From: Podospora anserina
Taxonomy: Eukaryota
Assembly (NCBI GenBank): GCA_017654855.1
Contig: CM030333.1
Span: 3,844,001-3,908,000, forward strand
Length of the DNA: 64,000 nucleotides
Reading direction: 5' to 3'
In this document: one piece after another, positions 30,207 to 55,560 of the stretch
How the letters are laid out: every line of letters begins with the position of its first letter
How positions within the stretch are numbered: position 1 is the stretch's first letter
Made by a program: the position numbers and the translations under genes
Notes under the pieces: model-generated
The model's database searches: none
What the model was told of the DNA's origin: nothing
What the model saw: the letters and a program-made list of their open reading frames with translations, nothing else

Positions 30207-33063
30207 ATGGCCTCCGCCTCTCTGCTATCTCACAAAGCGGGCGGCACCAGCCAACACTCTGCAGCCCTCCTACCTTCAGACCAACCACCATCATATCAAG
30301 AAAAGAAAAGTTGACAATCAAAACTGGCCTTTTTCAAGACGAAAAGGGGCCTTCTCATTATCGTTCTCATACTTGTAATAATAGGTGGCGGGCTGGCAGG
30401 GTTGGCAGCTCTCCCAAAACACAATGACAATGGCTCCGAGGAAGCGTTGGATGGGGGGAGGATGATTCAGAAGGATGAGTATTTCTACGGGGGCTCAGAG
30501 CCGGTCTACCCCTCTCGTAAGTGGATGACTTTTTCTTTTTGGCGGTGACATGATGGAGTGAGAACTGACAGATATGGCATCGATAGCGGAAATGACTGGT
30601 TCTGGGGAGTGGAAAGAGGCTTTCAATAGAGCCAAGGAGTTTGTGGGCAAAATGACACTTGATGAGAAGGTATCCTACCGCCACGTCTGGATTTATTGTG
30701 ACGAACGAAACTGACAGGAAGCTCAGATCAGCCTCACTTCAGGAACCAACTCCGAGACCTCTTGCCCTGGCTTCTTGCCTGCCATCTCACGCCTAAAATT
30801 CCCGGGTATGTGTCTGGCTGATGCTGGACAGGGTGTCAGAGGAACAGATTTTGTTAGCAGCTGGCCGAGTGGCATTCATGTTGGGGCCAGCTGGAACAAG
30901 GAACTCACTCTGGCAAGGGGCAAAGGTATGGGTGGTGAGTTCAGAACGAAGGGCGTCAACATTCTTCTGGGACCTGTAGTTGGGCCAGCTGGACGGGTTG
31001 TCAGTGGTGGAAGAAATTGGGAGGGCTTTGCCAGTGACCCTTATCTGTCCGGCGTGTTGGTTGGTGAGACTGTCAAGGGGATTCAGGGAGTTGGGGTTGT
31101 CGCCAGCACAAAGGTATGTTATTATCTCGAAACTTCAAGTTGACGCTGAGGCTGACGGCATATTCAGCATTTCATTGCCAATGAGCAAGAGACCAATAGA
31201 AACCCCAACAACGGTGTGGAGGCTGTCTCGTCAAATATAGATGACAGAACTATGCACGAGATTTACTTGTGGTAAGTGACGCGGAACTAACACTGCTAAA
31301 GAGCAAGCGTTGACGACGAAACCGCAGGCCCTTCCAGGATGCCGTACGCGCCGGAACGGGAAGCATCATGTGCTCCTACCAGAGGGTCAACAACTCGTAC
31401 GGCTGCGCAAACAGCAAGACGCAAAATGGACTGCTCAAGACTGAACTTGGGTTTCAGGGTGGCGTTGTGAGCGACTGGGGAGCTCAGCACGCCGGGGTTG
31501 CCACAGCTGAAGCAGGCATGGATATGGCTATGCCAAATGGCGGTGACTTTTGGGGCTCACATCTCGAAGACGCCATCAAAAATGGAACGGTGCCCGAAAG
31601 TAGGCTAGACGATATGGTCCTCAGGTATGTCGGGTGCATTCTCTCCGTGTGTGTGAAAAGTTGTTGACCCAAGCAGAACAATCGCTTCTTGGTATCAAAT
31701 GGGCCAGGACAATGACTTTCCTACGCCAGGTGTCGGTATGCCCAAGGACCTCACCAAGCCACATCGCATTATCGATGCAAGAAACTCTTCCTTCAAATCC
31801 ACTCTATTTGATGGTGCGGTTGAAGGTCACGTCCTGGTCAAAAACATCCGCAATGCCTTGCCGCTCAAGAGCCCCAAACTGCTGTCTATTTACGGCTACT
31901 CCGCCAAGAACCCCGACGAAAACAACCCAACAGATGGCCTCTCTCCCTGGCTGATGGGATCGGGATCCTTTGACTACCAGGAGTTTGGTGCAGGCTTCTT
32001 TGGCTGGTCAGGCGCAACACCAGGAACGACAGGCATTGCTTTTAACGGAACACTGTACTCTGGTGGCGGATCAGGGGCAACATCTCAGTCTCTTGCCATT
32101 TCACCGTATGACGCCATCCTTCAGCAAGCCTACGAGGACGATACAGCCCTCTTCTGGGACTTCCACAACGGCAAGCCGGCAGTGGATCCTGTCTCCAGCG
32201 CGTGTCTGGTATTCGGTAACGTCTGGGCTGCAGAAGGCGCAGATAGACCTGGCCTTCGAGACGATTACACCGACGAGCTGATCCTCCACGTCGCCAGCCA
32301 GTGCAACAACACTGTTGTGGTTTTCCATAATGCTGGTATAAGACTCGTTGAAGAATTTATCGGCCACCCCAACGTCACAGCAGTGATCTTTGCCCATCTC
32401 CCAGGACAAGCATCCGGGAAGGCGTTGGCATCTATCCTCTATGGAAAGGAGAACCCTTCAGGTAAACTGCCTTATACTGTTGCGCGCAACGAAGACGACT
32501 ATGGAGTCATGCTCAGGCCTGACAAGCCGGAGGGCATCTTCAAGTATTTCCCTCAGAGCAACTTTACCGAGGGTGTGTTTGTCGATTACAGGCACTTTGA
32601 CGAAAACAAGATCAAGCCTAGGTTTGAGTTTGGGTTTGGCCTGAGTTACACTACCTTTGGGTATTCCAATCTTGCTGTTGAGAAGGATGGCAACAGAAGC
32701 TTTGAGGAGTTTCCCAAGGGGAAGACTGTAGAGGGTGGTCAGGAGGACTTGTGGGATGCACTGGTTAGAGTGGAGGCTGAGGTTGAGAACAAGGGGGAGG
32801 TGGAGGGGAAGGAGGTTGCGCAGTTGTATTTGGGGATTCCGGGGACGAGAGAGGAAAAGGTACCTATGAGGCAGTTAAGGGGGTTTGAGAAAGTGTTGGT
32901 TGGGGTGGGGGAGACGAAGAAGGTGGTGTTTGAGCTGACGAGGAGGGATTTGAGTGTCTGGGATGTGAGGGCGCAGAAGTGGAGGTTGGGGAAGGGGGAG
33001 TATAACGTCGAGGTTGGGGGGAGTAGTAGGAATTTGCCTTTGTCTGGGAAGTTCACTGTGTAA
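30207..33063 (+). CDS. GH3 beta-glucosidase with N-terminal signal-anchor and C-terminal FnIII-like domain; in-frame TGA at codon 36 (30312-30314)
   Basis: Exon 1 (30207-30516) reads [55 protein letters not shown]. Downstream motifs: [37 protein letters not shown] (nucleophile Asp), [28 protein letters not shown]. Confidence 0.92.
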
Positions 33064-33752
33064 GACGGTTTTTTACAGATTGAAAGATGGGATGGCGCTT
33101 TGGATTTCCCATTGGGGTTATGTACGACATGTGTATGAGTTATGAATGTGAGCTATGGAGGATGTTGGACTAGGGTTCAATACGACTACAAGATACACGA
33201 GGCCCTCGATCTCTACGTCAGTTTCCCCAAGATCGCACTTCGATGATGAGTTGGAGCTCAATGGCCATTGAAGCGGATCTTCACCCCGGAAATGGCATAT
33301 ATCCGGCCCGCACCGATTTACCCGGCAGCTCCTCCCCGATGCGACCCCCGTCGATCGTCACCCGGCCACTTGAGGCTCAATGCGGGCCACATCTTGGCTC
33401 CTATCATGAATCACGGTTCGGCTGAAGAGCTTCCATTTTGGAGATCGTCGTGAGGGGAAAAGAGGAGTACGCGTGGTGCGCCGTGATGGCCCTCTGCATG
33501 AACAAGAGTCTCGCGCAGATTGCAGTGCCCTTGGAATCTGCAATATGGATTTCATTAACCTTCTTGTCCCGCTTCCGTGGCGCTGGTAAAGGTGTGAATG
33601 GGGAAAAGAAAAAGCGGAGGATGATGCTGCTTTGCTGCAGGGGTGTAATTGAGGTGATATAAAGTGCATATATTCCCCCCCCCTCGTCCACTGATTCTAG
33701 AGTTTGTTCGCCTCAGGGACAACCTCAGTTTTGGCTTTCCCTCGCACACAAG

Positions 33753-34832
33753 ATGCGTCTCTCCACCTCCCTTCTCGCCGCGGCGGGAGCTGTCCCCCTT
33801 GCAACCGCCCAGCTCCACGAGCTCGCCGTCAAGGCTGGCCTCCAGTACTTCGGTGCTGCGACTGACACCCCCGGCTTCCGCGAGCGCGAGCCCTACCCCG
33901 AATCTTATTCCCAATACGACGCCATCCTCGAAGACCCCAAGGAGTTCGGCCAGACGACTCCCACCAACGGCCAGAAATGGCTGTTTGTCGAGCCTGAGCC
34001 GGGCGTTTTCAACTTCACTGAGGGTGACTACGTTGCCAATTTGGCCAACAGGACTAACAAGATCCTCCGCTGCCACGCCCTCGTCTGGCACAGCCAGCTT
34101 GCCCCTTGGGTTGAGACCACCGAGTGGACCAAAGAGGGTTTGAGGGAGGCAATTGTCAGACATATCACCGAGGTGGCTGGGTATTACCGTGGCCGGTGTG
34201 CCCATTGGGATGTGTTGAATGAAGCCCTTGATGAAGACGGGACATACAGGAAGAGCGTGTTTTACAATGTGCTCGGGGAGGAGTACATCCGGCTTGCCTT
34301 TGAGACTGCTGCCAAGGTCGACCCAGAGGCGAAGTTGTACTACAATGACTACGGAATCGAGAGGCCGGCCAGTGTCAAGACTGCGGGCGCGGTGAGGCTG
34401 GTCAAGATGTTGAAGGATGCCGGGATCAAGGTTGATGGCGTGGGGATGCAGGCGCATTTGCATGCGGACAACCACCCGAGTGAGGCGGATTTGATCAACA
34501 CTATTGGGATGTATAAGGAGGTGGTGAAGGAGGTCGCGTTTACCGAGTTAGATGTGAGGATCAAGGTGCCGGTTGATGAGCAGAAGCTGCAGTGGCAGAG
34601 TGAGTGCTACCAGAAGGTTGTGGGGGCGTGTGTGAAGACGAAGGATGTTTGTGTGGGTATCACGATTTGGGACTTTTATGACCCTTTTAGCTGGGTGCCG
34701 CATGTGTTTCCGGGTAATGGGGCGAGTTTGTTGTGGTTTGAGGACTTTAGCAAGCACCCTGCGTATGATGGGATGGTGAACTACTTTGGGGAGTTGATTG
34801 AGGCCCAGGGTGGTAACGCTACGTGCTCGTAG
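33753..34832 (+). CDS. Secreted GH10 endo-1,4-beta-xylanase
   Basis: Signal peptide MRLSTSLLAAAGAVPLATA; motifs QKW, RCHALVWHSQL, WDVLNE (acid/base), LYYNDY, DGVGMQAH, FTELDV (nucleophile), GITIWDF. Confidence 0.96.
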   Translation: MRLSTSLLAAAGAVPLATAQLHELAVKAGLQYFGAATDTPGFREREPYPESYSQYDAILEDPKEFGQTTPTNGQKWLFVEPEPGVFNFTEGDYVANLANRTNKILRCHALVWHSQLAPWVETTEWTKEGLREAIVRHITEVAGYYRGRCAHWDVLNEALDEDGTYRKSVFYNVLGEEYIRLAFETAAKVDPEAKLYYNDYGIERPASVKTAGAVRLVKMLKDAGIKVDGVGMQAHLHADNHPSEADLINTIGMYKEVVKEVAFTELDVRIKVPVDEQKLQWQSECYQKVVGACVKTKDVCVGITIWDFYDPFSWVPHVFPGNGASLLWFEDFSKHPAYDGMVNYFGELIEAQGGNATCS

Positions 34833-35316: not shown

Positions 35317-35885
35317 TTTTGTCTCCATTTTTCGACTCCACTTGAAGTTATTGTGAGGTCTTGGCATTGTTGATGTGGTGGTGTTAGGTTGTATAGATAC
35401 TTGGGAGAATGTGAGATTCGGTATGAGTAGATATTTTGTAAAAACTAGGTGTCATATATTTTGGTTTTGAGACCCCTTCTGTTGCCGATCTTCATGGACA
35501 GGACTGTGTCTGGGGGTTGTAGGGGTCTAGGGCCTGGCAACGGACAGGTCTCGTAGATCTATAGAGATCTGTTGTGGTGAGCTAGAAATCCGTATACAAT
35601 ATCACAATGCTTGAAATTTTTCAGGAGCTTAGAGATTCATTGAGAAGGGTTGGGGCGTTCAATCGTTCAAAATCGGGTAGTCATCCTAGGGGGGTTGTAT
35701 GGGCCCACAATTAGGAAGATTTTTGAAGCTCAGGGGCTTCAGGGGGTGTTTGTCACCATGTAAACAAAGAGGAAATACAAGAGTGTTTGATGTATGCTAA
35801 TCCGAACCAATGCAATATAAAAATGAGAAACTTTTATGAGTACAACCGATCTGTTCCCTTTCCAAAAGAGTGCGCTCTGCCTTTT

Positions 35886-36409
35886 TCATGCCTTTGTATT
35901 TGCATTCCAAGTTCCAAACGTCATCGAGTCAATCTCCTGCTTTGCTCCCTCATGCAACACATTGGAATTAAAAGTATCGCCAACATGCTCAGCATTATCT
36001 GTTGTTGCAGTTGATATGTTCATCCGTGTCTGAATGGGGGATTCCATATCTCCGATGCTTTCTGGTCAGCTGGTCAGTACCAAGCGTGCGTGAGGCTGAA
36101 GTGATTCCTGTGTAACCAACCGAATGTCATGTTTTTCGCCTTTTGTTTTCCACCGTACATCACGTTCGAGTTCCAGCTGGTGCCAATCTGCTTTGGCCGA
36201 CGCAGGATTGCGTTTTGGATCTTGGCAGCAGATCCTTTTGGATATTTCCAGGCCAGTGTCGCAATAACGAGTCCCATTAGTGCGAGCACGGCCGTAGGCA
36301 CACCGACCGCGATTCCGACAACATCTGAAGTCGCCAGCCCTGCAGGTGCGGAGCTAGGCTGGTTCGTGGTGTTGGCCTCCGTGTCGATGGCGTCTGGTAT
36401 TGGGGCCAT
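35886..36409 (-). CDS. 154-aa single-pass membrane protein with two C-terminal amyloid-like pseudo-repeats (candidate NLR-coupled effector); exons 36409-36121, 36061-35886
   Basis: A 59-nt intron 36120-36062 (GTTGGT..ACTGAC..CAG) gives MAPIPDAIDTEANTTNQPSSAPAGLATSDVVGIAVGVPTAVLALMGLVIATLAWKYPKGSAAKIQNAILRRPKQIGTSWNSNVMYGGKQKAKNMTFESIGDMESPIQTRMNISTATTDNAEHVGDTFNSNVLHEGAKQEIDSMTFGTWNANTKA*. Recovering a second repeat in exon 2 supports the splice. Confidence 0.8.
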
Positions 36410-37749
36410 TGTTCGCAAGTGGGTGTGGTCATCAATGCCTAAGGAACTGTGACGTCTGCAGCCACCGACAAGGCTCCAGATGCTGCCTTGAAAGTGGATG
36501 AACGCAGAAGAAGCAGTGAGCAGGCTCTCGACCCATGGAGCGCACCTGGACGATAAATATGTGGTGTCGTGTGGAACGACTGCTTTGCTGACCATTCAGA
36601 AGATCTTCTGTACGTAGGAGCACAGAGACTTGACGTGGGAACATCGGTACCAATTAACAACGTCTTCATGTACGGTAGATTCTGTCGCCAATCAGCGGCA
36701 CTCACATGCACTGCCACGTCCTGTGCATGGAGCCCAACCGAAGCCTAGCCTGCTCCGACTACATACATCACGGCATTCGTATCAGGTCAACTGTTTAACT
36801 TGCCGGTTAGACGGAGTCCTCTTATCTGAGCCGATCATGTATAAATATGTTGTGGATCGGGCACAAGCCTGTGCAGTTTTGATTCCTGACACATGTGTCT
36901 GCTTATCATTGTTGGCTTTCCCTGCCTGTCCCACAGTACCTCCAGAATGAGCAATATCCCTACTAATCTCAAGAAGAAAGGAGTATATGGACTTGCTGAG
37001 ATGTCAACAACCACCGCCACGACCGTCATGCAGGAGCCCAGCTCTCAGTTCCGCGGCGACGGTAAAACATGGGACGGGTCAATAGTCAAGGTCAAAGCGA
37101 GTGATCCTGTTTACTATATAATCTACCCATTCTAGGTGTTTCTATCAATCCTAACCTAGGCCGCCCCTTAGACCTCACCAGATGCTTCTAAGCATAGAGG
37201 CAACGACGTCAGCTCATCTGTCAATTATGGCGGTCATCAGAAGGTGAAAAAGAGAATCAAGTTTGGTATGGCCCTTCCTCAGTTTCCTCAATTAAACCCC
37301 ATGTGAATGAACACTTATCTATCTTACCTATCATGCAGGTGCCTGCAATGAGAGTGAGCTCAAAATGGCTTTCAGTGCACCGATTGATCCGAAAGTCTCC
37401 GAGTCAACACACACTGGACATAATTACAAATCGAACGTTCTTTATGCTGGAGCTGAGCAGGAGGTTGATGAGCTTGTTTTTGAGTAAATGTGAAAATGTG
37501 TAGAAAGTATTGGATACCTGGCGTTCAAGATGGTATTAGGCGGTTTTTGTCGATAATTTGTTGAGTGAATTATGGAAGTCATTTCCTATGTCCAGTATAC
37601 GAACAATGAAAGGACATGATATCTTGATCTTACGTTACATGTGGATGATCGCGGCATTTGGCCACGATAGCCTGTGTACAACATAGATAGGCACCTGAGG
37701 GCATGTCGCTCAAGATGATTATATCTTCGTTATCGCACAGCCGGATCCA

Positions 37750-40700
37750 CTACCCACTATTTATCTGGTCGTACGGCGGACGGATTTCCTCAAATCGATG
37801 CCCAGGATGCAGTCTCTTTCCTCGACCCTCGCACTTGAAACAGTAGTTGAAGAAGAGTAAATCGTGATAGCATGTACGGCAATGAAATCGGATCCCATGT
37901 ATCAGCTTCATCCCTTTTCTGTTAGAAATCCACGCACCATAGCAGCTTGCAGAGAAGATTGGCGTACCCTGAGACAACTGTCACAAACATAATCCTTGTG
38001 CATAAGACCTGCACTCCACCAATGCCATTCGGACTGTGGAAAGACGTTTTCTCCTGTCTGCTTTCCCTCCAGAAGTGGCAGAAGGTCTCGATGCCCATGG
38101 TATATCGCAATACGGGCTGGTGGCCATTTGTTGTCGTCAGGCATTCTACCCTCTCTCAAACATACACCTCGCAGCTTTTCCACCACTTTCTTCTCCCCAG
38201 CCTTAGCCGCCCAGTGTAAAGCAGTCCAGCCGTCATCATCTGTCTCAGTAGGATCAACTTCCGGATGCTGTTCAAGCAGTTTCTCCACTACAGATAGCGA
38301 GCCACCTGATGCTGCAGCATGCAATGCGTTTCGGCCATGGTTATCCTTGGCGTTGGCTTTGTACCCTAACTTGAGGAGCTTCCCAACCATCTTGTCCTGT
38401 CCGCCCAGGGCAGCAAAGTAGAGGGCAGTACGCCCATACGCATCTTTCTCATGTCGCATAGAAGGCTCTTGTTGCCAACATGCGTCAAAGACTATATCCT
38501 CGCCGCCGAATGAAGCAGCATTTAGTATGGAACCGAAAACAGGGTGTTTGTTGTAGAGACTGGCACCCTTTCTCAGCAAGATTGTGGCAATATCAGAATG
38601 GCCTCGTCCAGCCGCAAGTGGCAGGGCGGTTATTCCAAGCTTGGCGTGCAAGAAAATGTCAACGGGAATGTCGAAGTCCACAAGCACTTGTACTACTTCC
38701 GTATGCCCTTCGCACGTCGCATAGCGCAAGGCAGTTGAACTGGCGGGGGCGCCCTTTTCAAGAAGCATACGCACAATCTCGTGGTATCCGTTGAACGCCG
38801 CCACAGTTAGTACTGTGTGTGGTTTATCCGGGGGGGCATTCCAATCTGCGCCGTTTCTGAGGAGCACCCTGACGATGTTTATGTGCCGAGCCCACATCAG
38901 AGGAGGGTATCCGCAGTTGGCGAGGATATTAACATCCGCACCATTAGCCAGTAATAACTCAACCACGCCCAGATTGTTCTGATATACAGCAAAATGGAGA
39001 GCTGAAAACCCATTGGCCTCACAATCGTTGACTCGGCAGCCAATATCCAGCGCCAGCCGAGCCATTCTCTGGTCCGAGAGAAAGGCTGCGGCATGGAGTG
39101 CAGTGTGCCCTGAGACCGGCGCGAGATTCTTGAATTCTGCACCCTGATCAAGTAGAAACTCAACGGCGTCGTGTTGCCCCATCTGGATTCCCCAGAGCAA
39201 GGGAGTTCCGCAGCAAATCATGGGCATGGGCCATTCCAACTCTGACGTTACTTCGCTATCATGCGCTTGAAACACTGTCTTGAGGAATACATTGAGAGGA
39301 CCCGTCGCGCAAATTTCCATATCGGCATTTCTCTGCAGGAGCAAAGTGACAGCAGCAAGGTTACCTTTGGCCATGGCATGGTGCAAGGCGGTGTCTCCGT
39401 GAGAACTGGTTTTATTCACATCTGCTCCGGCCAGAAGAAGAGCCCTCACCATACGTTTGCCGTCGTAGTCTGCTGTTTTCTCCTTGGTGCCATCACTGTC
39501 TGGCCACCAGGAATGACTGGGGTCGGGCCTAGCCTTGATTTGCTCTGTCCTTCCAGTTTGCGGGATATCCGAGTTCTTGACCTTGCAGTGTGGAATATTT
39601 GAGTTGTGAATATGATCATGAAGGAGAGAATAAATTAGGAGATTGAATTCGCACATGCAGGCCGCCTGAAGAGGAGTGTGTGTGGTTGCTTCCGTTTCTG
39701 TGGGCGCTTGGTGCTGAATAAGAAGATCAACCATGAGCTCAAAACACTTATACGCGGCCGCTTTCAGGTCGTTGTGAACTTGTTCCACGTCCCGATCCAA
39801 ATCGTCGACCAATCTTCGTGTCGAGCTGACCCATTGTGCAAATTCCGATGAGGCCGACAACCGCTCAGAAAAGTCCAAAGCGGAGGGTGTTTGAGGCTTC
39901 TTGTGGAAAATGTTCCGCAACGGTGTACCCCAGTAATTGTAAATCCGGTGTAGCCACGTCAATAGAGTGCTCTGAGTCCCATTGTCTGGGACAGACTCCA
40001 GCACCAGTTCCGAATCCTGTCTGGACTCTAGATACTCGAGTACATGTCTGTACCAGTTGTTGATGGCATACTCAAGAAGCGGCCGTCTTTGGAGGTCACA
40101 TTCCAGTACTTTCCCGCCATCAACTTCGTCCTCATCAGATTCATGTAAGGTGTGGTCATCCGTATTGACAACACATTCGTTGATATACTCGAGACATTGA
40201 TTGGCCATCATGAGGTGAACCACAGCCAGTCCACCACACCTATCCGCTTTGTTCACGAGGTATTCCTCCAGGCTGGAAAAGGCAAAATCCACGATTTGCT
40301 TGCCGTCTCGGTCTGGAGACTCTGGAAAAGCCACTAGACTGCCAAAGCTATGGCGAATGGAGACTGAATTCTTTTTGTTTGTCTGACCCCAGTTGATCAA
40401 GTCCTCGAATTCGACGAATCTCAACGGCCGGAGGGTGCACATGAGCCATTGGAGAGATAGATAGGCATTGGGCATGACGCATATTCTTTCCAAGGCTTTA
40501 TCGTAGAAAGCATTGATCTCTTTCGGGATCTCATTCAATGCATCAAGTACCTCCTCCTCATCGGGGGCTGGGTCCCTTCGCCGAATGAATTCGTGAAATT
40601 CAGGATCCAACAGCCGTAATTTGACTAAACCGAAGCTATTGATCCAGTTCCAGGTTAGCTTTCGATCACTTCTCAAAACTGCTTCTCGGTAGGTGGTATT

Positions 40701-42193
40701 TGGTGCAAAACAGATTGTGTTGAGCCAGTTGGTCATCTTTGCATACTACCTAGGTAGGTAGGTATATGGAGATAGACTTACATTCCGTCTGAATTGTCCA
40801 CCAAATTTTTTTTGATGATCTCAATCCACTCCGGATGTTTTCTTCTGATTATTCCCCAGTTCGACTTTTTTAGCTCCTGGTCAACCATCAACTCGATGCC
40901 GTTCGTGTGGGCGATCCCTTCCACTGCAACGTCGAATCCCCCTTCACGATCGTGACTCAGGTCCCAGCATCGGTCCTCGAGAGCCGTGTCTACATGATCT
41001 CTGCTCACGACAAGGATATGGACAGGATCATGAGATTTGAGGCACTCAAGTAACTCGAATAAGACTGCCAGCGAGTCTTTTCCATTGGGTGACTCTGTAA
41101 GAGAATCCAAGCCATCAATTACGAGGTACACCTGCCCTCGTTCCTCGGCTAGACATCGTATCGCATACTTTAGGAGCGTGTAATCAAGACTGCCGGTCTT
41201 CTTGAACTCTTGCCGCACTTTCTGCACTCCCTTGGGCAACTGGGATAGGCCTTCGCATAGTTGTCGAAGCCATGATCTTAAGAGTCGTTCTGGAAAGGAT
41301 TCTTGGCGGCTTTCGCCCTCAGAAGGTTTGATACAAAACTCGTTAGAATCGAGGTAATAGTAAGCGACTATCGGGACTCCATCGGTAGCTTCTTGTTCAA
41401 GTTCTTCGATGATCGATGCACTGAGGTAATGTTAAAGAACTTCCAAAGAAGTGTACATGGAATTGCGAGTAACAAGCGACAGCAAGGGATTCGTTCGACT
41501 TACCACAATACAGTCTTCCCGCAAAAGTGCTTTCCATGAAGCCAAAGAAAGCTTTTGGGACAAACTTTCCATTTCTTGAATGCGTCCAAATTCAGAAGCC
41601 AAGACACTGTACCCTCGGTTCGGCTTTCCAAAGCTCTCTCATGTGCTGTGCGATGGTCGAACTTCGACAGCCAGTCAAGAGGTTGTTTGTCTGCAAGAAA
41701 GTCTGGGTCTTCATGTCAAGCATTAACACTCCAGAATTAGCAGATAGAAACATGAAAGCTCTCAAGGTCAGTAAGTGTAACTTACCATTCGGCTGTGCAC
41801 CTGTTCGATGACCCTTTGTCACGAGATTCATGACCCCTATCCGTTGGTATCCCATGTTGCTGTTGGAGTGAACATTATGACCACTATGCTGCATCTGTCG
41901 AGCCTGGAAATTATCCTGCCAATATTCGGGACCTTCAGCGGACTTTTAGGGTGTCAGACCCAGCATAATGCCCGGTATTTAGTATACAGGTGTCAGGTGT
42001 GACTTACCAAGGTCTCCTCACACTCCAGTCTTTCGACATCTTGATCAAGCGTGTTACTTTTTGGTTGAACTTCAGAAGAGTGTAAATTGGCCGAGAGCAA
42101 ATGTGGCGGAAGCGAAGGGGAGCTTTGGGGGGTGGATGGCGGGGGCGAGGGAGGGCGAAACGGTTGAGATGGTAAGCTCAAACTTGCAGCCAT
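37750..42193 (-). CDS. Fungal NLR: short N-terminal amyloid-like motif, NACHT, ankyrin repeats, ZZ-type zinc finger; exons 42193-42008, 41942-41786, 41690-41504, 41420-40782, 40635-37968, then about 37906-37750
   Basis: Spliced product has LDWLSKFDH..RTEGTVSWLL..FKKW..FLWLHGKHFCGKTVL (P-loop), YLVIDGLD (Walker B), LQWLMCTLRPL, LLEYAINNWYRH, multiple G.TALH.AA ankyrins and CDSC..IHGIRFHCRTC..YCFKC..HPGHRF. Confidence 0.9.
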
Positions 42194-42802
42194 TTGGACT
42201 GATTACAATTTTCTGAGAGTATGTGAGAATAAAGGGGAGTAAACTATAATCAAGAAAGCAGATTCTGGCCCTCATAAAACATTGGAATGTGGTTGTTTTG
42301 TCTGATCAGGCGATGTCCAAGATGTGACAAGTTCGAGCGATTTGGAAGTTTCCTGTGGTAGTCACAAAGGTGAGCTGCCCTGTTGTCTGCCTTGGAACAA
42401 GGCAACCCCCAATTTTCCTTCTTTTATTTCTGATTGGCCTTGAATGGCAAGGCATAATAATGTGGCTGCATAAAATTGCATCTGGCTGAACGTGAGGCAT
42501 CCAACTTCTCGCCGATTGACGTCCCATTCTGTGATGGGTCGCCCAAGGGTACGGCGCAGCCTTTTCCGTCCCTCTACATCCATTATTAACTTATATCGAC
42601 CCTACATTCTTCACTTCCTAGCATCGATTTCACTTTTCTAGGTATCCAGGAAGTACTGTCCAGTTCTCCACCATTTTGTCACCATTCACCTTTCCTACAA
42701 GACACCTCACATTTTTGTTATTAGACAGCCTTGTGGTTGTCGAGTAGAACTCCACATCGACGACGACGATACAACGACCGTTCGAATTTTTGACTTGGAG
42801 CT

Positions 42803-45215
42803 ATGTCTTCTGAGGAGACTAAGGTGGTTGCCACGCCTGAACCTGGCGAGCAGTGCGATGTCAAACACCTCAAACGCAGCTATGTGGATGGAAGCAATGA
42901 CCCGGTGGTTACCGAGGGTGACTCGGATCCGGTCAAAAAGGAGGAAGACACAAAACATCAGTCATTTGCCCTAGTGTCGACACAAAACTTCGATAAGGAT
43001 AACAATCGCACCGATACAACGCTTTTGATCAATTCCAAGCACATACTCGCCGCTCTCACAAGGGTAGTTCGTTACTATCCCGACCAAGACGAGGAATTCG
43101 ACAAACCCTCTGAGCTGACATCACCATTCAATCTTCTCTATCATCATCGCAAGGAGCTTTCTGAGGAGGCTGCTAGGGTAGGCGGTGACGGTGCCCTCCA
43201 TCTCAACCTTCTCCTGAGCTACCTTGACAAGCAGAAGTGGGCCGAGGCCGAGACACTCACAGCTCGAGAGAATCCTGTCATTACATTTGATCTACTTTGG
43301 TTCGTTTTTAAACCCGGCGACTTGCTATACAGGATGGTAAACGGCGAGCCTGCTTTGTACTGGCTTGTGAGCGTGTGCTATGACGAAACGCCAACAACAG
43401 GAGATTCATGGAAATACCTCGAGCTTGAGTGTCTATATCAAGCACACGACGGAAAGAAAACGGGTGTGGTGCGGGAAAGTCTCAAAATATACGAACACCA
43501 GGAATTTGCGGGCGATACCCCCGAGAAGATTACAAGCCTCTCAGTCTTTCCGCTAAAGTACCACAAAGACAGAGAAGGAATAAAAGAACGCCTTGTGAAG
43601 CGCGGACAACGATATTTGGAGCTTGTGCAAAAGCAGGGCCAAGCATATCATTACGAAGGTCTATGCAGAAGGCTTAAAACACCTCCTGGGGGCTCATACT
43701 TTTCCAGCGAAGAAAAATTTATTGGCGTCTGGCTCCCAGAAACAGTGAGTTGCCCTCATATCCGCTAGCAACCCAGCTTTGCTAAAAGATTACCATAAGG
43801 CTACCGGAAGAGTCGTCTTAGACTGTTCAACATTCATGGAAGATAATCCTTTCCACCGCGTCAATGTTTCCAATTGGAGCATCTCGAAAGGTCAGTAAAC
43901 ATACCATATGTTACCATGATAATACTGCTTGCAGCCTCTAAAGAGTCCAGTGGCTGAAGCAAGAGAGTCTAGACAAAACAACCGATGGCTTCGATGACCC
44001 TACACTACTCTGTCTGCCATATGTCTATGGATATTCTCTGGACATGCGATGCTGGTGTATGTTCTCTGTAGACAAGGTGAAGACGGCCGACTGGAAACAT
44101 AAAGACTTTGATTCGGTTGTCCTTCCGGATGGATATAGGAAGATCATCACATCACTTGTTAAAAGTCACAAATTCGCCAGTCATACCCGAGATGAGACTG
44201 CCCTCAAAGGCAAGGGTCTGATATTTGTTTTGCATGGCCCTCCTGGGACTGGCAAAACAAGAACAGCTGGTGAGTTGCGCTTCACATGCGTTCTGTCAAA
44301 GTATTTTTGTGCCGTGGCAGCCATAGAAGTTACTCCGTACTGACAGTCATGACAGAAGCAATTGCCGAGACAACCTCAAAGCCGCTCTTGCTATTCCCAA
44401 CCGGAGAACTCGGGGGTGATCTCAGAAGCATTCAGTCAGAGCTGAGGCGGCTAGTTAGATACGGCACTGCATGGAAGGCCATTCTACTTATCGATGAGGC
44501 GGATGTATTTCTGGAATCCAGACAGGTTGACGGACATGTGTCGTTGGAGCGTAATGCTCTCGTAGCAGGTAAGCAGAGGCTTTTCCCCAAGATAGCTTTG
44601 GTAAAGCATCCATAAACACGCTAACGCTTTTCCGTAACGCGAACAGTTTTCTTGAGGCAGCTCGAGTATTTCCAGGGCATCATATTTCTGACCTCTAACC
44701 GCGCCCAAATGTTCGATCCCGCAGTCAAGTCCCGCATCAACGTTATGCTGCACTACCCCTCGCCCGACAAAGAAACGCGAAAGGTGTTGTGGGCACAACG
44801 GCTTGGACCAATATTGAAACTCAAATCCTTGCCAAGATGCGAACTGGATCTAAATTCAGCAACGGAGACACTGTCGGAGTATGAGATGAACGGTCGGGAG
44901 ATTTCAAATGCTGTCAACTCGGCTTTGACCATAGCCAAAGCTGATACGCTCACCCTTAACATGGACCACCTTCGGTCTGTGGCAAAAATATGGAAAGACT
45001 CACAGGAAAAGAGCGTCGAAGTGGGACCAGTTGTGGACGCAGTTCAGGAGATCAAAAGGATTCCGTCTATCAGTGAGGTTCTTAGGACACTTAAAATCCC
45101 GCTTTGGGTCTGGAAACTATTCGTTTCAGCATTCCTTGCTGGCGCTCTATTTCAAGGGTCCCTTAAAATCTTTAAGGCAAGGATAAGGTGGCGAGGGCGT
45201 CGAGCTCACAGGTGA
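42803..45215 (+). CDS. Fungal AAA+ ATPase, multi-exon, with hydrophobic C-terminal tail
   Basis: ITFDLLWFVFKPG, KGKGLIFVLHGPPGTGKT (Walker A), ILLIDEADVFLE (Walker B), LERNALV..FLRQLEYFQGIIFLTSNR..FDPAVKSRI, MNGREISN; tail LWVWKLFVSAFLAGALF. Confidence 0.92.
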
Positions 45216-49045: not shown

Positions 49046-52000
49046 ATGGTAGGATCCCTTTCGACATAGGAAAACGCGGCCGGACGCTAACTGCCGCCAA
49101 TCCGCCTTTAGGCTCCGAAGGGACTCCGCCGGATCGCCCCAGCGCACGTCCCTGACAACACGACCATCGAGTACGTTGCACCGACCCAACGACTAAAGGC
49201 CTGTCTAATAGCATAGTATCATCGCAATCCACGGCTTGGGCACCGAGTCGCCGCGGACATGGGAGTTCAAGAAGAAAGGAAGAGGCGGGGTGGTGAGCTG
49301 GTTGTCGGACAGCGACATGCTGCCGGCAGCTCTACCTGAGGCCCGCATATTCACCTACGACTGGAACGCAAACTACTTCAAAGATGCACCCGTACAAACG
49401 CTGCTCGGCCATGCTGACACGCTGCTCAAACTTGTTTCCGAAGGCCGCGGTTCGCAAACGCGACCGATCATCTTCGTTGCTTCTTGTTTTGGGGGCCTTA
49501 TCCTGGCTGAGGTATGTCCCGATGGATTGACGGCGGACAGCGGTTAACATCCCTAGGCTGTTAATCGAGCGGCCCAGGAAGGCAGCGACTACCGACATAT
49601 TCTGCTTTCCACTGTCGGGATCGTTTTCCTCGCCACTCCGTTCCAGGGCAGCGATGCCGCCCAGCAGGCTCGGTGGCGGGTGCTGGTTGCCGGCATTATG
49701 GGAGAGCAAGCCTCCGACCAGCTCATACAAGACCTCGAGCAGGAACACAACTTCGTTCGCCAGCGTATCCAGAAATTCACCGAGATCGCGAATACCGAGG
49801 CGGTCCGACTGCCCCTGTATTGCTTCTTTGAAATAAAGGAGACAGAGATATTAAGAGCCATTCTACCACGAGGTTGGGCGAAGACGCTGACTGAGCGTGT
49901 ATTGAAGAAGATTGTACGTTAATTTTATCGCGATTCATAATGTAGCTGACGCAGGATAGCTTGTGACGGAGTCCTCGGCTTGCCTCCATGGTTTCCATCG
50001 TCAGGGGCTAGATGCAACCCATTCGGGCATGAACAAATTCGAGGGTCCAGAATGCCCCAACTTTAAACTCGTTAAAGATGCGATCAAGCAATTCGCTGAA
50101 AATGCACCTGCCGTTTTAACGCGGCGGAAGAACTGTGAGTTAAACCATCCCCTCTGAGCGGCTGCTACGGCTAGGATCCTACTAACATGATGAAGTACCT
50201 GGCAAGCGGCACTGGATTGTCCCGTTTGGACGTAACAAGGAATTTGTCGGCCGTGAAAAGATTCTCCAGGACCTTCTCGGGAGGATCCATCCTAGTGCAG
50301 ATAAGGATGACTGCCAGCGGACCGCAATCGAAGGCCTGGGAGGGGTGGGAAAGACGCAGGTCGCGCTCGAGGTTGCTTTTCGCGTCAGCAACGAGCACCC
50401 GAACTGCTCGGTCTTCTGGGTTCCCGCTGTGGATGTCACCAGTTTTGAGAACGCATACCGTGCTATCGGCCAGCAACTCACGGTGCCCAGGATCGATGAA
50501 GTGAATGCAGACGTCAAAGCACTTGTCAAGACAGCCTTGAGTCGTGAAAGTACGGGTAGCTGGCTTTTGATCATCGACAACGCTGATGACAGAAAGCTAC
50601 TCCTTAGCGACACTGCCCTTACCGACTATCTTCCATTTAGCCGGAAAGGATCTATTCTATTCACAACACGAAATCACGAAGTCGCGGTTAAGCTAGTGGG
50701 GCCTAAGAGTCACATTATCTCAGTTGAAGAAATGAGCAGAGACGAAGCCTTTAAGCTGTTGCAGAAAGGCTTGAAGGGAGATCAGATGCGTGATACGGCA
50801 AGCACTGTCGCGCTGCTGGAATTTCTTACCAATCTCCCTCTGGCGATACAGCAGGCGTCTGCTTACATGGCCGAGAAGCAGATCTCAACTACACAATACC
50901 TTGGACTGTGCAAGTCCAGTGACGAGGATATGATCGAGCTACTGAGCCGGGACTTTGAGGACCGACACCGATATCAGGGCATTCAAAACCCTGTCGCCAC
51001 AACTTGGCTGATTTCGTTCCGGCACATCTCAGATCACGACCCGCTGGCGGCGGACTACCTCAGGTTTATGTGCTTCCTAGCTGGGAAGGATATTCCGCAA
51101 TCTCTGCTGCCGCCGGCCGGGAGGCTAAGGACTGTTGACGCTATTGGGACTCTGAAGGCGTATGCATTTATCTCCCAACGGAAGGAGCCAGATACTTACG
51201 ACATCCATCGGCTGGTCCAAATATCGATGTTACGCTGGTTAGCCCAAAAGGGAGAGCGAAAGGAATGGACCGCCAAAGTGCTACAACGGCTTGATAATGT
51301 GTTTCCCTATCCGGATCACGGCAATAAAGAAGTATGGATGAGCTATCTTCCGCATACGCAACATATTTTGGAACTGCGGGAGAGGGCGGATAACGAGGAG
51401 GCGCCAACAGGTCTTCTGTCCAAAGTGGGCCAGAGCTTTTACAATTTAGGAAAATATAAGGAGGCCGAGCAGAGGCATCGGCAGACGCTACAGCTACATA
51501 AGAAGGTGTTGGGTAAGGAGCATCCCAACACACTTTCCAGCATGAACAACCTTGCGAGAGTGCTTAAGAGCCAGGGGAAGTACGAGGAGGCCGAGCAGAG
51601 GCATCGGCAGACGCTACAGCTACGTGAGAAGGTGTTGGGCAAGGAGCATCCTGACACACTTACCAGCATGAACAACCTTGCGAGTGTGCTCGATAGCCAG
51701 GGAAGTACGAGGAGGCCGAGCAGATGCATCGGCAAACGCTACAGCTACAAGAGAAGGTGTTGGGTAAGGAGCATCCCGGCACACTTTCCAGCATGAACAA
51801 CCTTGCGAGAGTGCTTAAGAGCCAGGGGAAGTACGAGGAGGCCGAGCAGAGGCATCGGCAGACGCTACAGCTACGTGAGAAGGTGTTGGGCAAGGAGCAT
51901 CCTGACACACTTACCAGCATGAACAACCTTGCGAGTGTGCTCGATAGCCAGGGGAAGTACGAGGAGGCCGAGCAGAGGCATCGGCAGACGCTACAGCTAT

Positions 52001-53807
52001 GTGAGAAGGTGTTGGGTAAGGAGCATCCCTACACACTTTCCAGCATGAACAACCTTGCGAGTGTGCTCGATAGCCAGGGGAAGTACGAGGAGGCCGAGCA
52101 GAGGCATCGGCAGACGCTACAGCTACATAAGAAGGTGTTGGGTAAGGAGCATCCCAACACACTTACCAGCATGAACAACCTTGCGCTTGTGCTCGATAGC
52201 CAGGGGAAGTACGAGGAGGCCGAGCAGAGGCATCGGCAGACGCTACAGCTACGTGAGAAGGTGTTGGGCAAGGAGCATCCTGACACACTTACCAGCATGA
52301 ACAACCTTGCGAGTGTGCTCGATAGCCAGGGGAAGTACGAGGAGGCCGAGCAGAGGCATCGGCAGACGCTACAGCTATGTGAGAAGGTGTTGGGTAAGGA
52401 GCATCCCTACACACTTTCCAGCATGAACAACCTTGCGAGTGTGCTCGATAGCCAGGGGAAGTACGAGGAGGCCGAGCAGATGCATCGGCAAACGCTACAG
52501 CTACAAGAGAAGGTGTTGGGTAAGGAGCATCCCGGCACACTTTCCAGCATGAACAACCTTGCGAGAGTGCTTAAGAGCCAGGGGAAGTACGAGGAGGCCG
52601 AGCAGATGCATCGGCAAACGCTACAGCTACAAGAGAAGGTGTTGGGTAAGGAGCATCCCGGCACACTTTCCAGCATGAACAACCTTGCGAGAGTGCTTAA
52701 GAGCCAGGGGAAGTACGAGGAGGCCGAGCAGAGGCATCGGCAGACGCTACAGCTACGTGAGAAGGTGTTGGGCAAGGAGCATCCTGACACACTTACCAGC
52801 ATGAACAACCTTGCGAGTGTGCTCGATAGCCAGGGGAAGTACGAGGAGGCCGAGCAGATGCATCGGCAAACGCTACAGCTACAAGAGAAGGTGTTGGGTA
52901 AGGAGCATCCTGACACACTTATCAGCATGAACAACCTTGCGGGTGTGCTCAATAGCCAGGGGAAGTACGAGGAGGCCGAGCAGAGGCATCGGCAGACGCT
53001 ACAGCTATATAAGAAGGTGTTGGGCAAGGAGCATCCTGACACACTTATCAGCATGAACAACCTTGCGGGTGTGCTCGATAGCCAGGGGAAGTACGAGGAG
53101 GCCGAGCAGATGCATCGGCAGACGCTACAGCTACGTGAGAAGGTGTTGGGCAAGGAGCATCCTGACACACTTACCAGCATGAACAACCTTGCGAGTGTGC
53201 TCGATAGCCAGGGAAGTACGAGGAGGCCGAGCAGATGCATCGGCAAACGCTACAGCTACAAGAGAAGGTGTTGGGTAAGGAGCATCCCGGCACACTTTCC
53301 AGCATGAACAACCTTGCGAGAGCGCTTAAGAGCCAGGGGAAGTACGAGGAGGCCGAGCAGAGGCATCGGCAGACGCTACAGCTACGTGAGAAGGTGTTGG
53401 GCAAGGAGCATCCTGACACACTTACCAGCATGAACAACCTTGCGAGTGTGCTCGATAGCCAGGGGAAGTACGAGGAGGCCGAGCAGATGCATCGGCAAAC
53501 GCTACAGCTACAAGAGAAGGTGTTGGGTAAGGAGCATCCCGGCACACTTTCCAGCATGAACAACCTTGCGAGAGTGCTTAAGAGCCAGGGGAAGTACGAG
53601 GAGGCCGAGCAGAGGCATCGGCAGACGCTACAGCTACGTGAGAAGGTGTTGGGCAAGGAGCATCCTGACACACTTACCAGCATGAACAACCTTGCGAGTG
53701 TGCTCGATAGCCAGGGGAAGTACGAGGAGGCCGAGCAGATGCATCGGCAAACGCTACAGCTACAAGAGAAGGTGTTGGGTAAGGAGCATCCCGGCACACT
53801 TGTGTAA
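49046..53807 (+). CDS. Fungal NLR: SesB-like alpha/beta-hydrolase, NB-ARC, highly conserved TPR array; two 1-bp deletions in the array; exons 49046-49048, 49112-49170, 49217-49511, 49557-49913, 49960-50134, 50196-53807
   Basis: [76 protein letters not shown] (P-loop), [31 protein letters not shown]; then [36 protein letters not shown] repeats. Confidence 0.92.
51449..53803 (+). repeat. Tandem array of about 19 near-identical 126-bp units encoding 42-aa TPR repeats
   Basis: Unit starts (GGGAAGTACGAGGAGGCCGAGCAG) recur at about 51449, 51575, 51700, 51826 ... 53589, 53715. Confidence 0.97.
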
Positions 53808-54479: not shown

Positions 54480-55560
54480 AGAGTTATAAGTCATAACATT
54501 TATTTTAGCATCTGGAGGTGGCCAGGGTCTACCCGAATGCTCCTTGTTGAGCAACCTTGAGGTGGGGAACCATCCACTCCCGTGCATCGTAACATCGGGC
54601 GGTACTTGTTAATAGATAACATTCGCAAGTGCTCCGAATTTATACAGCTCCAAGGCCAGCCCCATCATAGCTTCAATTCGTGAATGCTGCATATTCCTCC
54701 GTGTCGAGGACCCAGTTGTATGCCTCGTCGAGCAGCACGTCCTTCTTTTTCCGAATCTTCCTATGTCGTCCTGAGGATCTACCACGAAGAGGTCTTGGAG
54801 GTACCCTTCGTCGTTGTCAGTTTTGATGTGAGCAATAAGCTCTCGGATGTCCTAAATGATATCCCCGAGTGGCTTTTCCATTGCTTTGGCAGGCTTGACG
54901 AGTTAGCCCAATGCCTCCTTCGCCTGGAGCTTGTTGTACTGGTCCGAATCCCTCTGCAGGGCATCTTCCGCATCCGTGACAGCCTTCAGGGCGGCGTCCC
55001 AGTCGTCCCAGTTGGCAAGGCCACAGAGAAAAACGAGACCCTGGTGGCGGTAGTAGGAGCAGATGCTTTTTATCTGGTATGGGAGGAGGGCCTTGTAAAG
55101 CGCGACGATCCTCGCCTTTAGCTGGGGCAGGATCGATTCTAAAGACTCGTCGATGTGATCCTTCTCCAGGAGATATTCGGACGGGGCGTAATACCAATCC
55201 ATTCTAGAGATAATGTGGGCGGTACCGGCAAGGTTGGTTCTTGTTGCTCTTAGCTGTAGCCCAAGGAAAACACCGGTCCCTGGAAGCGCAGCCGATGCAG
55301 CTTGTGGCACGCTTTGGAGTACTAAGTCAACCATTGCCTCAGCGGATAGGACGAAACCAGCGAGGTCGCCAACCCCGGTACTTATCCTGGAAGCCTTGGA
55401 TATTTTCTGTTGATCCTTTTCAACCAACTCCCTCTATGTGCTTTTGTCGCGCGATTAGATCCTTCAGTTTGGCTCGGGGGTCGGCTGTGGAGGGCTTATC
55501 GGTCTGGCCGCCGAGAACTTTTTCCAGAATTTTCCCGTAGGACCCAACAAGATCTATATC
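54480..55560 (-). pseudogene. Relic of an NWD-type NLR (N-terminal NACHT_N/Goodbye-like domain and start of NACHT), convergent with the TPR NLR
   Basis: VPQAASAALP..GLQ, IISRMDWY, IVALYKALL.YQIKSICSYYR, DDWDAALKAV, then stops (54903; TGA 54673-54675) and frameshifts around YLQDLFVVDPQDD..LLDEAYNWVLDTEEYAAFTN*. Boundaries approximate. Confidence 0.8.

Follow-up and report, generated by a model that had tools for sequence, protein, structure and literature searches.

We found that three neighbouring genes in a 64,000-nucleotide stretch of Podospora anserina DNA, referred to here as the window, form a credible candidate for an NLR-amyloid signalling cluster, one that would add a motif family and a membrane-anchored effector type, both of them new; we rate the chances of this reading as somewhat above even. 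The cluster consists of a NOD-like receptor (NLR) gene, the orthologue of Pa_2_10310 / QC764_210310, and of two small genes, gene A (PODANS_2_10290) and gene B (PODANS_2_10300). Five copies of one motif lie within 6 kb: a single copy, R0, ahead of the NACHT domain of the receptor, and two copies in each small protein (R1 and R2 in gene A, R1' and R2' in gene B). The architecture favours a cluster because no Pfam domain precedes NACHT in the receptor and R0 occupies an exon of its own. The membrane topology, the amyloid folding, the templating by R0 and a cell-death output are inferred. Gene A agrees letter for letter with PODANS_2_10290 of P. anserina S mat+ (its product with record P0018), and the window is therefore part of P. 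anserina chromosome 2. The order in the window is gene A (- strand), gene B (+) and NLR (-), with A and B divergent and B and the NLR convergent. The sequence-only reading of this DNA had described a receptor-effector pair; it had missed gene B, and the pair has become a trio. The distance of about 1.3 kb that it gave between gene A and the NLR stood, but the interval is taken up by gene B, an expressed and spliced gene on the + strand.

Transcript support was taken from the contigs of four runs (X1, X2, X3 and X5; four studies; 24 listed) over 35600-42400. Though these runs are not recorded as RNA, their contigs are without the introns and are therefore transcript assemblies. Gene A (154 residues; 36409..35886, - strand) has exon 1 at 36409-36121, a 59-nt GT..AG intron at 36120-36062, exon 2 at 36061-35889 and its stop codon at 35888-35886. 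The joint 36061|36121 was present in contigs of all four runs, as expected for the spliced 154-residue gene that had been proposed from the letters. A single transmembrane helix is predicted at about residues 31-54 (36248..36319, -), on the basis of an AlphaFold2 (AF2) helix at the aligned position and of weak Pfam matches, all of them confined to this stretch (Podoplanin, SKG6, Psg1). It is followed by a basic juxtamembrane stretch (KYPKGSAAK..RRPK), and by the positive-inside rule the repeat tail would be cytosolic. Reading the spliced model and the alignment, we placed R1 (QIGTSWNSNVMYGGKQKAKNMTF) at 36122..36190 (-) and R2 (HVGDTFNSNVLHEGAKQEIDSMTFG) at 35913..35987 (-), exactly where they had been claimed, with a variable linker between them. 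The tail after R2 is short and contains a glycine and an aromatic residue (GTWNANTKA).

A longer, 216-residue form of gene A, starting at the in-frame ATG at 36595 and found in three Podospora annotations, was rejected, since the Triangularia setosa, Immersiella caudata and three Podospora records begin at MAP (36409). Two of the four contigs also terminate downstream of the ATG at 36595. We observed in addition an out-of-frame upstream open reading frame of 53 codons from 36433, and contig 5' ends that range over 36480-36624.

Gene B encodes 130 residues (36947..37487, +). Exon 1 (36947-37096) is followed by a GC-AG intron (37097-37171), exon 2 (37172-37265), a second intron (37266-37338) and exon 3 (37339-37484), with the stop codon at 37485-37487. 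The joint of intron 1 was found in all four runs and that of intron 2 in three, intron 2 being retained in X2; the model agrees with the 130-residue records P0006, P0021 and P0024. R1' (HRGNDVSSSVNYGGHQKVKKRIKF-G; 37193..37265, +) was read from the spliced model and the contigs, and the C-terminal R2' (HTGHNYKSNVLYAGAEQEVDELVFE; 37410..37484, +) from the alignment and the DNA pattern. In the S mat+ record of gene B (P0022), which has 94 residues, intron 2 is read through and R2' is lost. The intron-2-retained form of X2 corresponds to this 94-residue product, and gene B may exist as two isoforms, one of them lacking the second repeat.

Genes A and B are paralogues (BLASTP E 1e-12, 37% identity over 90 residues spanning R1, linker and R2), and they have in common a phase-1 intron right after the F of R1 and R1'. 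MAFFT aligned the transmembrane stretch of gene A to a Ser/Thr-rich stretch of gene B. This weak alignment suggests that gene B is a copy of gene A from which the transmembrane helix has been lost. The start codons of the divergent genes A and B are separated by 537 bp (36410..36946) within which contig ends are located, and this intergenic region is presumably a promoter common to both.

The NLR encodes 1336 residues (42193..37750, -), with exons at 42193-42008, 41942-41786, 41708-41504, 41420-40782, 40635-37968 and 37905-37753 and the stop codon at 37752-37750. All five predicted introns, including the two that flank the 157-nt R0 exon, were found as joints in all four runs, which upheld the earlier splice model with R0 in a small exon of its own. 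A 1340-residue variant of the last intron was ruled out by the joint 37905|37968. The layout of the protein is a Pro/Ser-rich leader, R0, NACHT, ankyrin repeats and a ZZ-like zinc finger. On the orthologue, Pfam assigned residues 147-323 to NPHP3_N/NACHT (E 1.7e-26), with many ankyrin repeats after them; residues 1-146 (exons 1 and 2) gave no Pfam family, in agreement with the description of a Pro/Ser-rich leader free of any N-terminal effector domain. The earlier designation NACHT-ANK-ZZ thus held for NACHT and the ankyrin repeats, while the ZZ part is weak: the C-terminal Cys/His cluster matched Pfam ZZ at E 0.15, below the cut-off, and it is UniProt that calls the orthologue ZZ-type. The helical region of the protein is 98% identical to that of QC764_210310 of Podospora pseudoanserina (P0001), which also has 1336 residues.

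The R0 block (QHSGHNVHSNSNMGYQRIGVMNLVTKGHRTGA; residues 80-111; 41796..41891, -) lies inside exon 2 (41942-41786), with its core at 41888-41817. Compared by eye with the T. setosa orthologue, 28 of its 32 residues are identical. The rest of the R0 exon has 8 of 17 residues identical and the 68 residues that follow this exon, Walker A included, have 47 (69%), both again by eye; exon 1, with the leader, shows 47% identity and the helical region 61%. Because R0 is 28/32 identical and its surroundings are at 47-69%, it is, as judged from this two-species comparison, the most constrained piece of the NLR N-terminus and appears to be under a constraint of its own.

Aligning the five motif copies gave an invariant G, S and G and a mean column identity of 45%. 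With the orthologues included, the working consensus of about 24 residues is H-x-G-x-x-phi-x-S-N-V-phi-[YH]-x-G-x(1-2)-Q-x-phi-x-x-phi-x-F. The fixed pattern proposed from the first inspection was too strict, as neither its M-[TN]-phi nor its S-N is invariant. A back-translated S-N-V-x-[YH]-x-G had three matches in the 64 kb (R1, R2 and R2') with 0.04 expected, and three matches were reached in none of 100 shuffles. By BLASTP the R0 exon aligned in register to each of the two gene B repeats (E 0.012 and 0.047), and it resembles gene B more than gene A. When a profile of the effector repeats only (eight repeats, no R0) was compared with R0 by hhalign, we obtained P 0.0068 over 14 columns, which are the first half of the motif only; the second half of R0, G-Y-Q-R-I-G-V-M-N-L, fits G-x-Q-x-phi-x-x-M-x-phi by eye only.

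To determine the spread of the motif we searched the repeat profile against 1.84 billion representative proteins. Seven matched at E <= 0.001, all from this small family of Sordariales: gene A of Podospora, of T. setosa (P0012) and of I. caudata (P0008); gene B of T. setosa (P0010, partial) and a B-like protein (P0013); the T. setosa NLR (P0002); and, from Logan, a fragment of the R0 exon (P0009). The T. setosa and I. caudata orthologues of gene A keep the transmembrane helix with the juxtamembrane stretch, R1 and R2, and diverge in the ectodomain and the linker; conservation is highest in the transmembrane stretch. For gene A of P. anserina against that of T. setosa we counted 16 of 24 identical residues in R1 and 19 of 24 in R2 from the alignment. 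This pattern of conserved repeats and a diverging linker would suit a prion-forming tail. A word-based homologue search with exon 1 of gene A found none among proteins of similar length; the representative is the 216-residue annotation, which is outside that length range, and the profile search over longer lengths recovered the family.

P0013 is a second B-like fragment of T. setosa (74 residues, partial), with an R1/R2 pair of its own. Because it lies on a third contig, the motif family appears to have expanded in T. setosa. A metagenome scan gave one locus (L001, 126-278) that has in common with gene A only the transmembrane module (GTSDIIGIAVGVPS...WKRP). Because L001 carries this module without repeats, the membrane anchor of gene A appears to be common to a broader class of single-pass proteins in fungi.

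We considered whether the likeness of R0 might be a coincidence, with A and B a lineage-specific paralogue pair whose function is unrelated to the NLR and whose adjacency to it reflects an NLR-rich region. We regard this as unlikely; the observations that follow speak for it or weigh against the three genes acting as a cluster. The similarity of R0 to the repeats is modest (P ~0.007-0.05) and the R0 exon compared with T. setosa gene A by BLASTP gave a non-significant E of 0.59; the relation claimed between R0 and R1/R2 is in register but modest. The 'invariant' serine is a cysteine in R2 of P. pseudoanserina gene A (P0007), which reads N-C-N for N-S-N. An NLR neighbour is not rare in this region, given at least two other NLR-type genes in the window (50186-53807 and 54906-55433). 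Linkage was found within the Podospora complex: the locus tags 210290, 210300 and 210310 are consecutive in P. pseudoanserina, P. pseudocomata, P. pseudopauciseta and P. bellae-mahoneyi, and P. comata has the three genes under consecutive accessions. Because of their close relationship, these five species do not amount to independent support for synteny. In T. setosa, genes A and B lie side by side (consecutive accessions on a 78-kb contig) and the orthologue of the NLR sits on another contig, of 30 kb; in I. caudata there was no R0-bearing NLR among the profile matches. Linkage of the NLR to A and B is thus seen only within the Podospora complex. R0 begins at residue 81 behind a long leader, and not at the extreme N-terminus as in NWD2. 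On the effector side, Pfam detected no HeLo, HELL, SesA, SesB or PNP_UDP domain in gene A and no match at all in gene B, which also has no transmembrane helix and no effector part, so that the recognised execution domain of a NWD2/HET-S-type architecture was found in neither.

Coincidence does not sit easily with the position and the conservation of R0. It lies exactly at the usual site of a receptor motif, in an NLR otherwise without an effector domain; it is the best conserved block of the N-terminus; and it matches the two gene B repeats in the same register. As for the split in T. setosa, the gene B record there is a partial one that stops within intron 2, and the separation is possibly a contig break and not a loss of linkage.

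The candidate cluster would add a motif family only if the motif differs from those described. Published signatures were taken as the consensus strings printed in PMC3321046, PMC4518210 and PMC9815663. As printed, the HET-s motif has N at positions 1 and 18, hydrophobic residues at 3, 6, 14 and 16 and G at 17 (and 10) (PMC3321046), and HRAM has an invariant G at 19 (17 in the 2012 numbering), 16 residues after N/Q/H, with hydrophobic residues at 5, 8, 10, 16 and 18 (PMC4518210). PP is given as the pseudopalindrome FxGx(x)NxGLQLxGxNxGxL with a G-phi-Q-phi-G core and sigma as GxGxQFNxx and GGTQNINT, three times repeated (both PMC3321046), and PUASM as FxGxGxQxxGxGxF with a PNP_UDP effector (PMC9815663).

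We found that the HRAM glycine is present only in R2 and R1' (2 of the 5 repeats of the window); by eye, it is absent from R0 of both species and replaced by E in spliced R1. At HRAM positions 8 and 10 (2015 numbering) all five repeats have the non-hydrophobic residues G/K/E/Q/H/R. No repeat contains the G-x-Q-x-G of PP, R0 reading G-Y-Q-R-I-G. Of sigma, there is just one GGxQ per repeat, in R1 and R1', which resembles sigma submotif B. On inspection no repeat showed the PUASM pattern, nor is there a PNP_UDP domain. The sigma motif has the Pfam family name NACHT_sigma. Searching Pfam at E up to 10 gave no match to HET-s_218-289 (PF11558), sigma or RHIM, and a profile search of the PDB with the same limit brought up no HET-s/HELLF chain and two unrelated matches (E 0.9-1.8). 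Judged on its sequence, then, the motif does not carry the HRAM, PP, sigma or PUASM signature, and the original impression that it is unlike HET-s/HRAM, PP and sigma was borne out against the printed strings and Pfam.

The same mechanism could nevertheless work with a very divergent HRAM or with a class left unnamed by Wojciechowski et al. 2022 (e.g. NLR34), in which case the motif would not be new. There is a faint HET-s theme by eye on the numbering of PMC3321046: R2 has N1 (the second N of NSN), hydrophobic residues at 3, 14 and 16 and G17, and R0 has N1, Y6, G10 and L14. The scatter of the defining glycine, the polar or glycine residues at positions 8 and 10 and the failure of both profile searches to return HET-s or HELLF argue against HRAM ancestry. 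The unnamed classes were set apart by Table 1 of PMC9815663 and not by their motif logos, which are outside our comparison and leave some room for this explanation; that table gives 0 motif-bearing neighbours for classes NLR17, 19, 20 and 34, compared with two here. Taken together, a known motif in disguise seems to us a rather remote prospect.

In its layout the candidate cluster resembles the NWD2/HET-S and FNT1/HELLF (HRAM) systems. As in those, there is an NLR without effector domain but with one motif copy (r0), and an adjacent gene with r1 and r2 separated by a poorly conserved loop, a short tail with a glycine and an aromatic residue after r2, and opposite charges in r1 and r2. By eye, the residues after the conserved Q are basic in the first repeat and acidic in the second (KQKAKN vs KQEIDS in gene A, QKVKKR vs QEVDEL in gene B). 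Inter-rung charge pairing has been described for HET-s (PMC4518210), and by analogy this pattern would fit inter-rung salt bridges; it is not kept in I. caudata. The differences are equally clear. The motif is about 24 and not 21 residues long, with invariant G/S/G/Q and no conserved HRAM glycine; R0 is at residues 81-104 behind the leader, not at 3-23; the receptor is a NACHT-ANK, not a NACHT-WD or NB-ARC-TPR protein; and the effector is predicted to be a constitutive single-pass membrane protein, not a HeLo/HELL helical bundle.

One NLR with two motif-bearing neighbours is also the arrangement of PNT1/HELLP/SBP (PP) in C. globosum and het-eN/sesA/sesB (sigma) in N. haematococca. The partners in those trios are a pore-former and a lipase, whereas A and B are paralogues of each other. 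Gene B resembles a copy of gene A that keeps the doubled motif and is without the membrane-active part, which recalls HET-s, the non-toxic prion variant, beside the pore-former HET-S; these, however, are alleles with 13 residue differences, and A and B are divergent separate paralogues, ~37% identical over the tail. Among bacterial systems, BASS/Bell and Bab/Agp likewise combine a short amyloid motif at the receptor N-terminus with one at the C-terminus of a small membrane-targeting protein (as described in bioRxiv 10.1101/2024.11.07.622273). Bell and Babybell are four- to five-helix bundles hiding an N-terminal hydrophobic helix, whereas gene A is an ectodomain stub with one transmembrane helix, and there is no sequence relation.

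Structure prediction gave neither gene A nor gene B a confident monomer or globular fold. For T. setosa gene A, AF2 with the family alignment gave a mean pLDDT of 43.8, with a transmembrane helix and short strands inside the repeats, and the ESM Atlas model had pLDDT 0.53 and pTM 0.21; an ESM Atlas search with it yielded no informative neighbours (scores <=0.86, TM <=0.35). Gene B modelled by AF2 had a mean pLDDT of 39.2 and short strands in the repeats, the second halves of R1' and R2' being paired at low confidence. As the models are low-confidence, these strands carry little weight. Modelling the gene A tail in a complex with the R0 region lent no support, and the outcome was counted neither way.

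Ankyrin and ZZ-type domains bind peptides. As ligands of the ANK/ZZ-like sensor, the repeats of genes A and B could be guardee or regulator, with R0 an intramolecular auto-inhibitory mimic, or R1 and R2 could form a small beta unit on partner binding; the motif would then be an interaction module and not an amyloid. Like a short linear motif, R0 has mainly the H-x-G-H-N-x-x-S-N half in common with the repeats, and the low-confidence pairing of R1' and R2' strands would agree with a small beta unit. We nonetheless consider such a module improbable. The length of 24 residues, the duplication with a variable linker, the enrichment in G/N/Q/S with alternating hydrophobics and the position immediately ahead of the nucleotide-binding oligomerisation domain are hallmarks of amyloid motifs in the descriptions of PMC5485727 and PMC9815663, and the want of a confident fold in either protein speaks in the same direction.

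If the three genes do form an amyloid signalling cluster, we propose that the ANK/ZZ-like region would sense a ligand and the NACHT domain would then oligomerise. R0, ~10 residues before the NACHT pre-domain, would be clustered by this oligomerisation and could nucleate a cross-beta fold, and this fold might template the doubled motif, two rungs per molecule, in the tails of A and B. Polymerisation of the gene A tail would line up the transmembrane helices so that the membrane is damaged or gated, making gene A the executioner; gene B may act as a soluble relay, amplifier or buffer. In its fullest form, this would be a fourth amyloid signalosome of P. anserina, in which a constitutively anchored executioner (A) is arrayed by a cytosolic amyloid and a HET-s-like prion relay without transmembrane helix (B) stands between the NACHT-ANK receptor and the membrane. 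We put this version forward tentatively, as possible but somewhat short of an even chance.

According to PMC9815663 and PMC12261475 there are four or five fungal NLR amyloid motif families, all tied to HeLo-type pore formers or enzymes, and for P. anserina Bardin et al. 2021 report three amyloid signalosomes, independent of one another (PMC7885112). If our reading is true, it adds a motif family and a fourth system in the same model species, and it means that a plain single-pass membrane protein can be an amyloid-controlled effector. Genes A and B would be a natural anchored/soluble paralogue pair for studying how amyloid polymerisation becomes membrane damage. Assays of GFP foci, prion conversion, cross-seeding and fusion-cell death are already established in Podospora.

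The annotation of the locus deserves comment. The NLR database records P0029, P0036 and P0037 have 942 residues, the same length as the long frame of exon 5 counted from its first Met. Their length suggests that they are without the leader, R0 and NACHT, and they would then not be recognisable as NLRs. A similar case is the sigma cluster, whose NLR motif was first overlooked through a missed 5' intron (PMC3321046); here, records of 942 residues are too short for the N-terminal part of the 1336-residue protein. Screens based on annotation have a blind spot at these 942-residue records and at the 94-residue S mat+ gene B record without R2'. It is plausible that screens starting from annotated NLR N-termini missed the cluster because of the gaps in NLR and gene B. 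In full-text searches of the library used here we found no paper naming Pa_2_10290, Pa_2_10300, Pa_2_10310, their PODANS/QC764 tags or B2B790/B2B791, although supplementary gene lists (e.g. those of PMC9815663, PMC12258605, PMC13449251 and PMC3689799) may still name them.

Several further observations were made in the window. Individual contigs span the 3' ends of both gene B (+) and the NLR (-) at 37338-37905. Possibly the convergent 3' untranslated regions overlap, or the assemblies merged both; antisense regulation is a possibility. The window NLR differs from all four transcript runs at 39357 (A>C), 39878 (A>G) and 39957 (C>T), which is probably a strain difference and not editing. At least three NLR-type genes are present in the window. 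The second, with NB-ARC and TPR and many near-identical 42-residue TPR units, is at 50186-53807 (+), perhaps from 49212; the frame 49212-49544 upstream of it looks like an alpha/beta-hydrolase by eye but has no Pfam match. A NACHT_N domain at 54906-55433 (-; E 9e-37) is the N-terminal part of an NWD-type NLR. The genes flanking the cluster, at 30715-34832 (+) and 42794-45215 (+), are ordinary: a GH3 beta-glucosidase-like gene, a GH10 xylanase and a DUF7025 protein with a fungal AAA+ lid.

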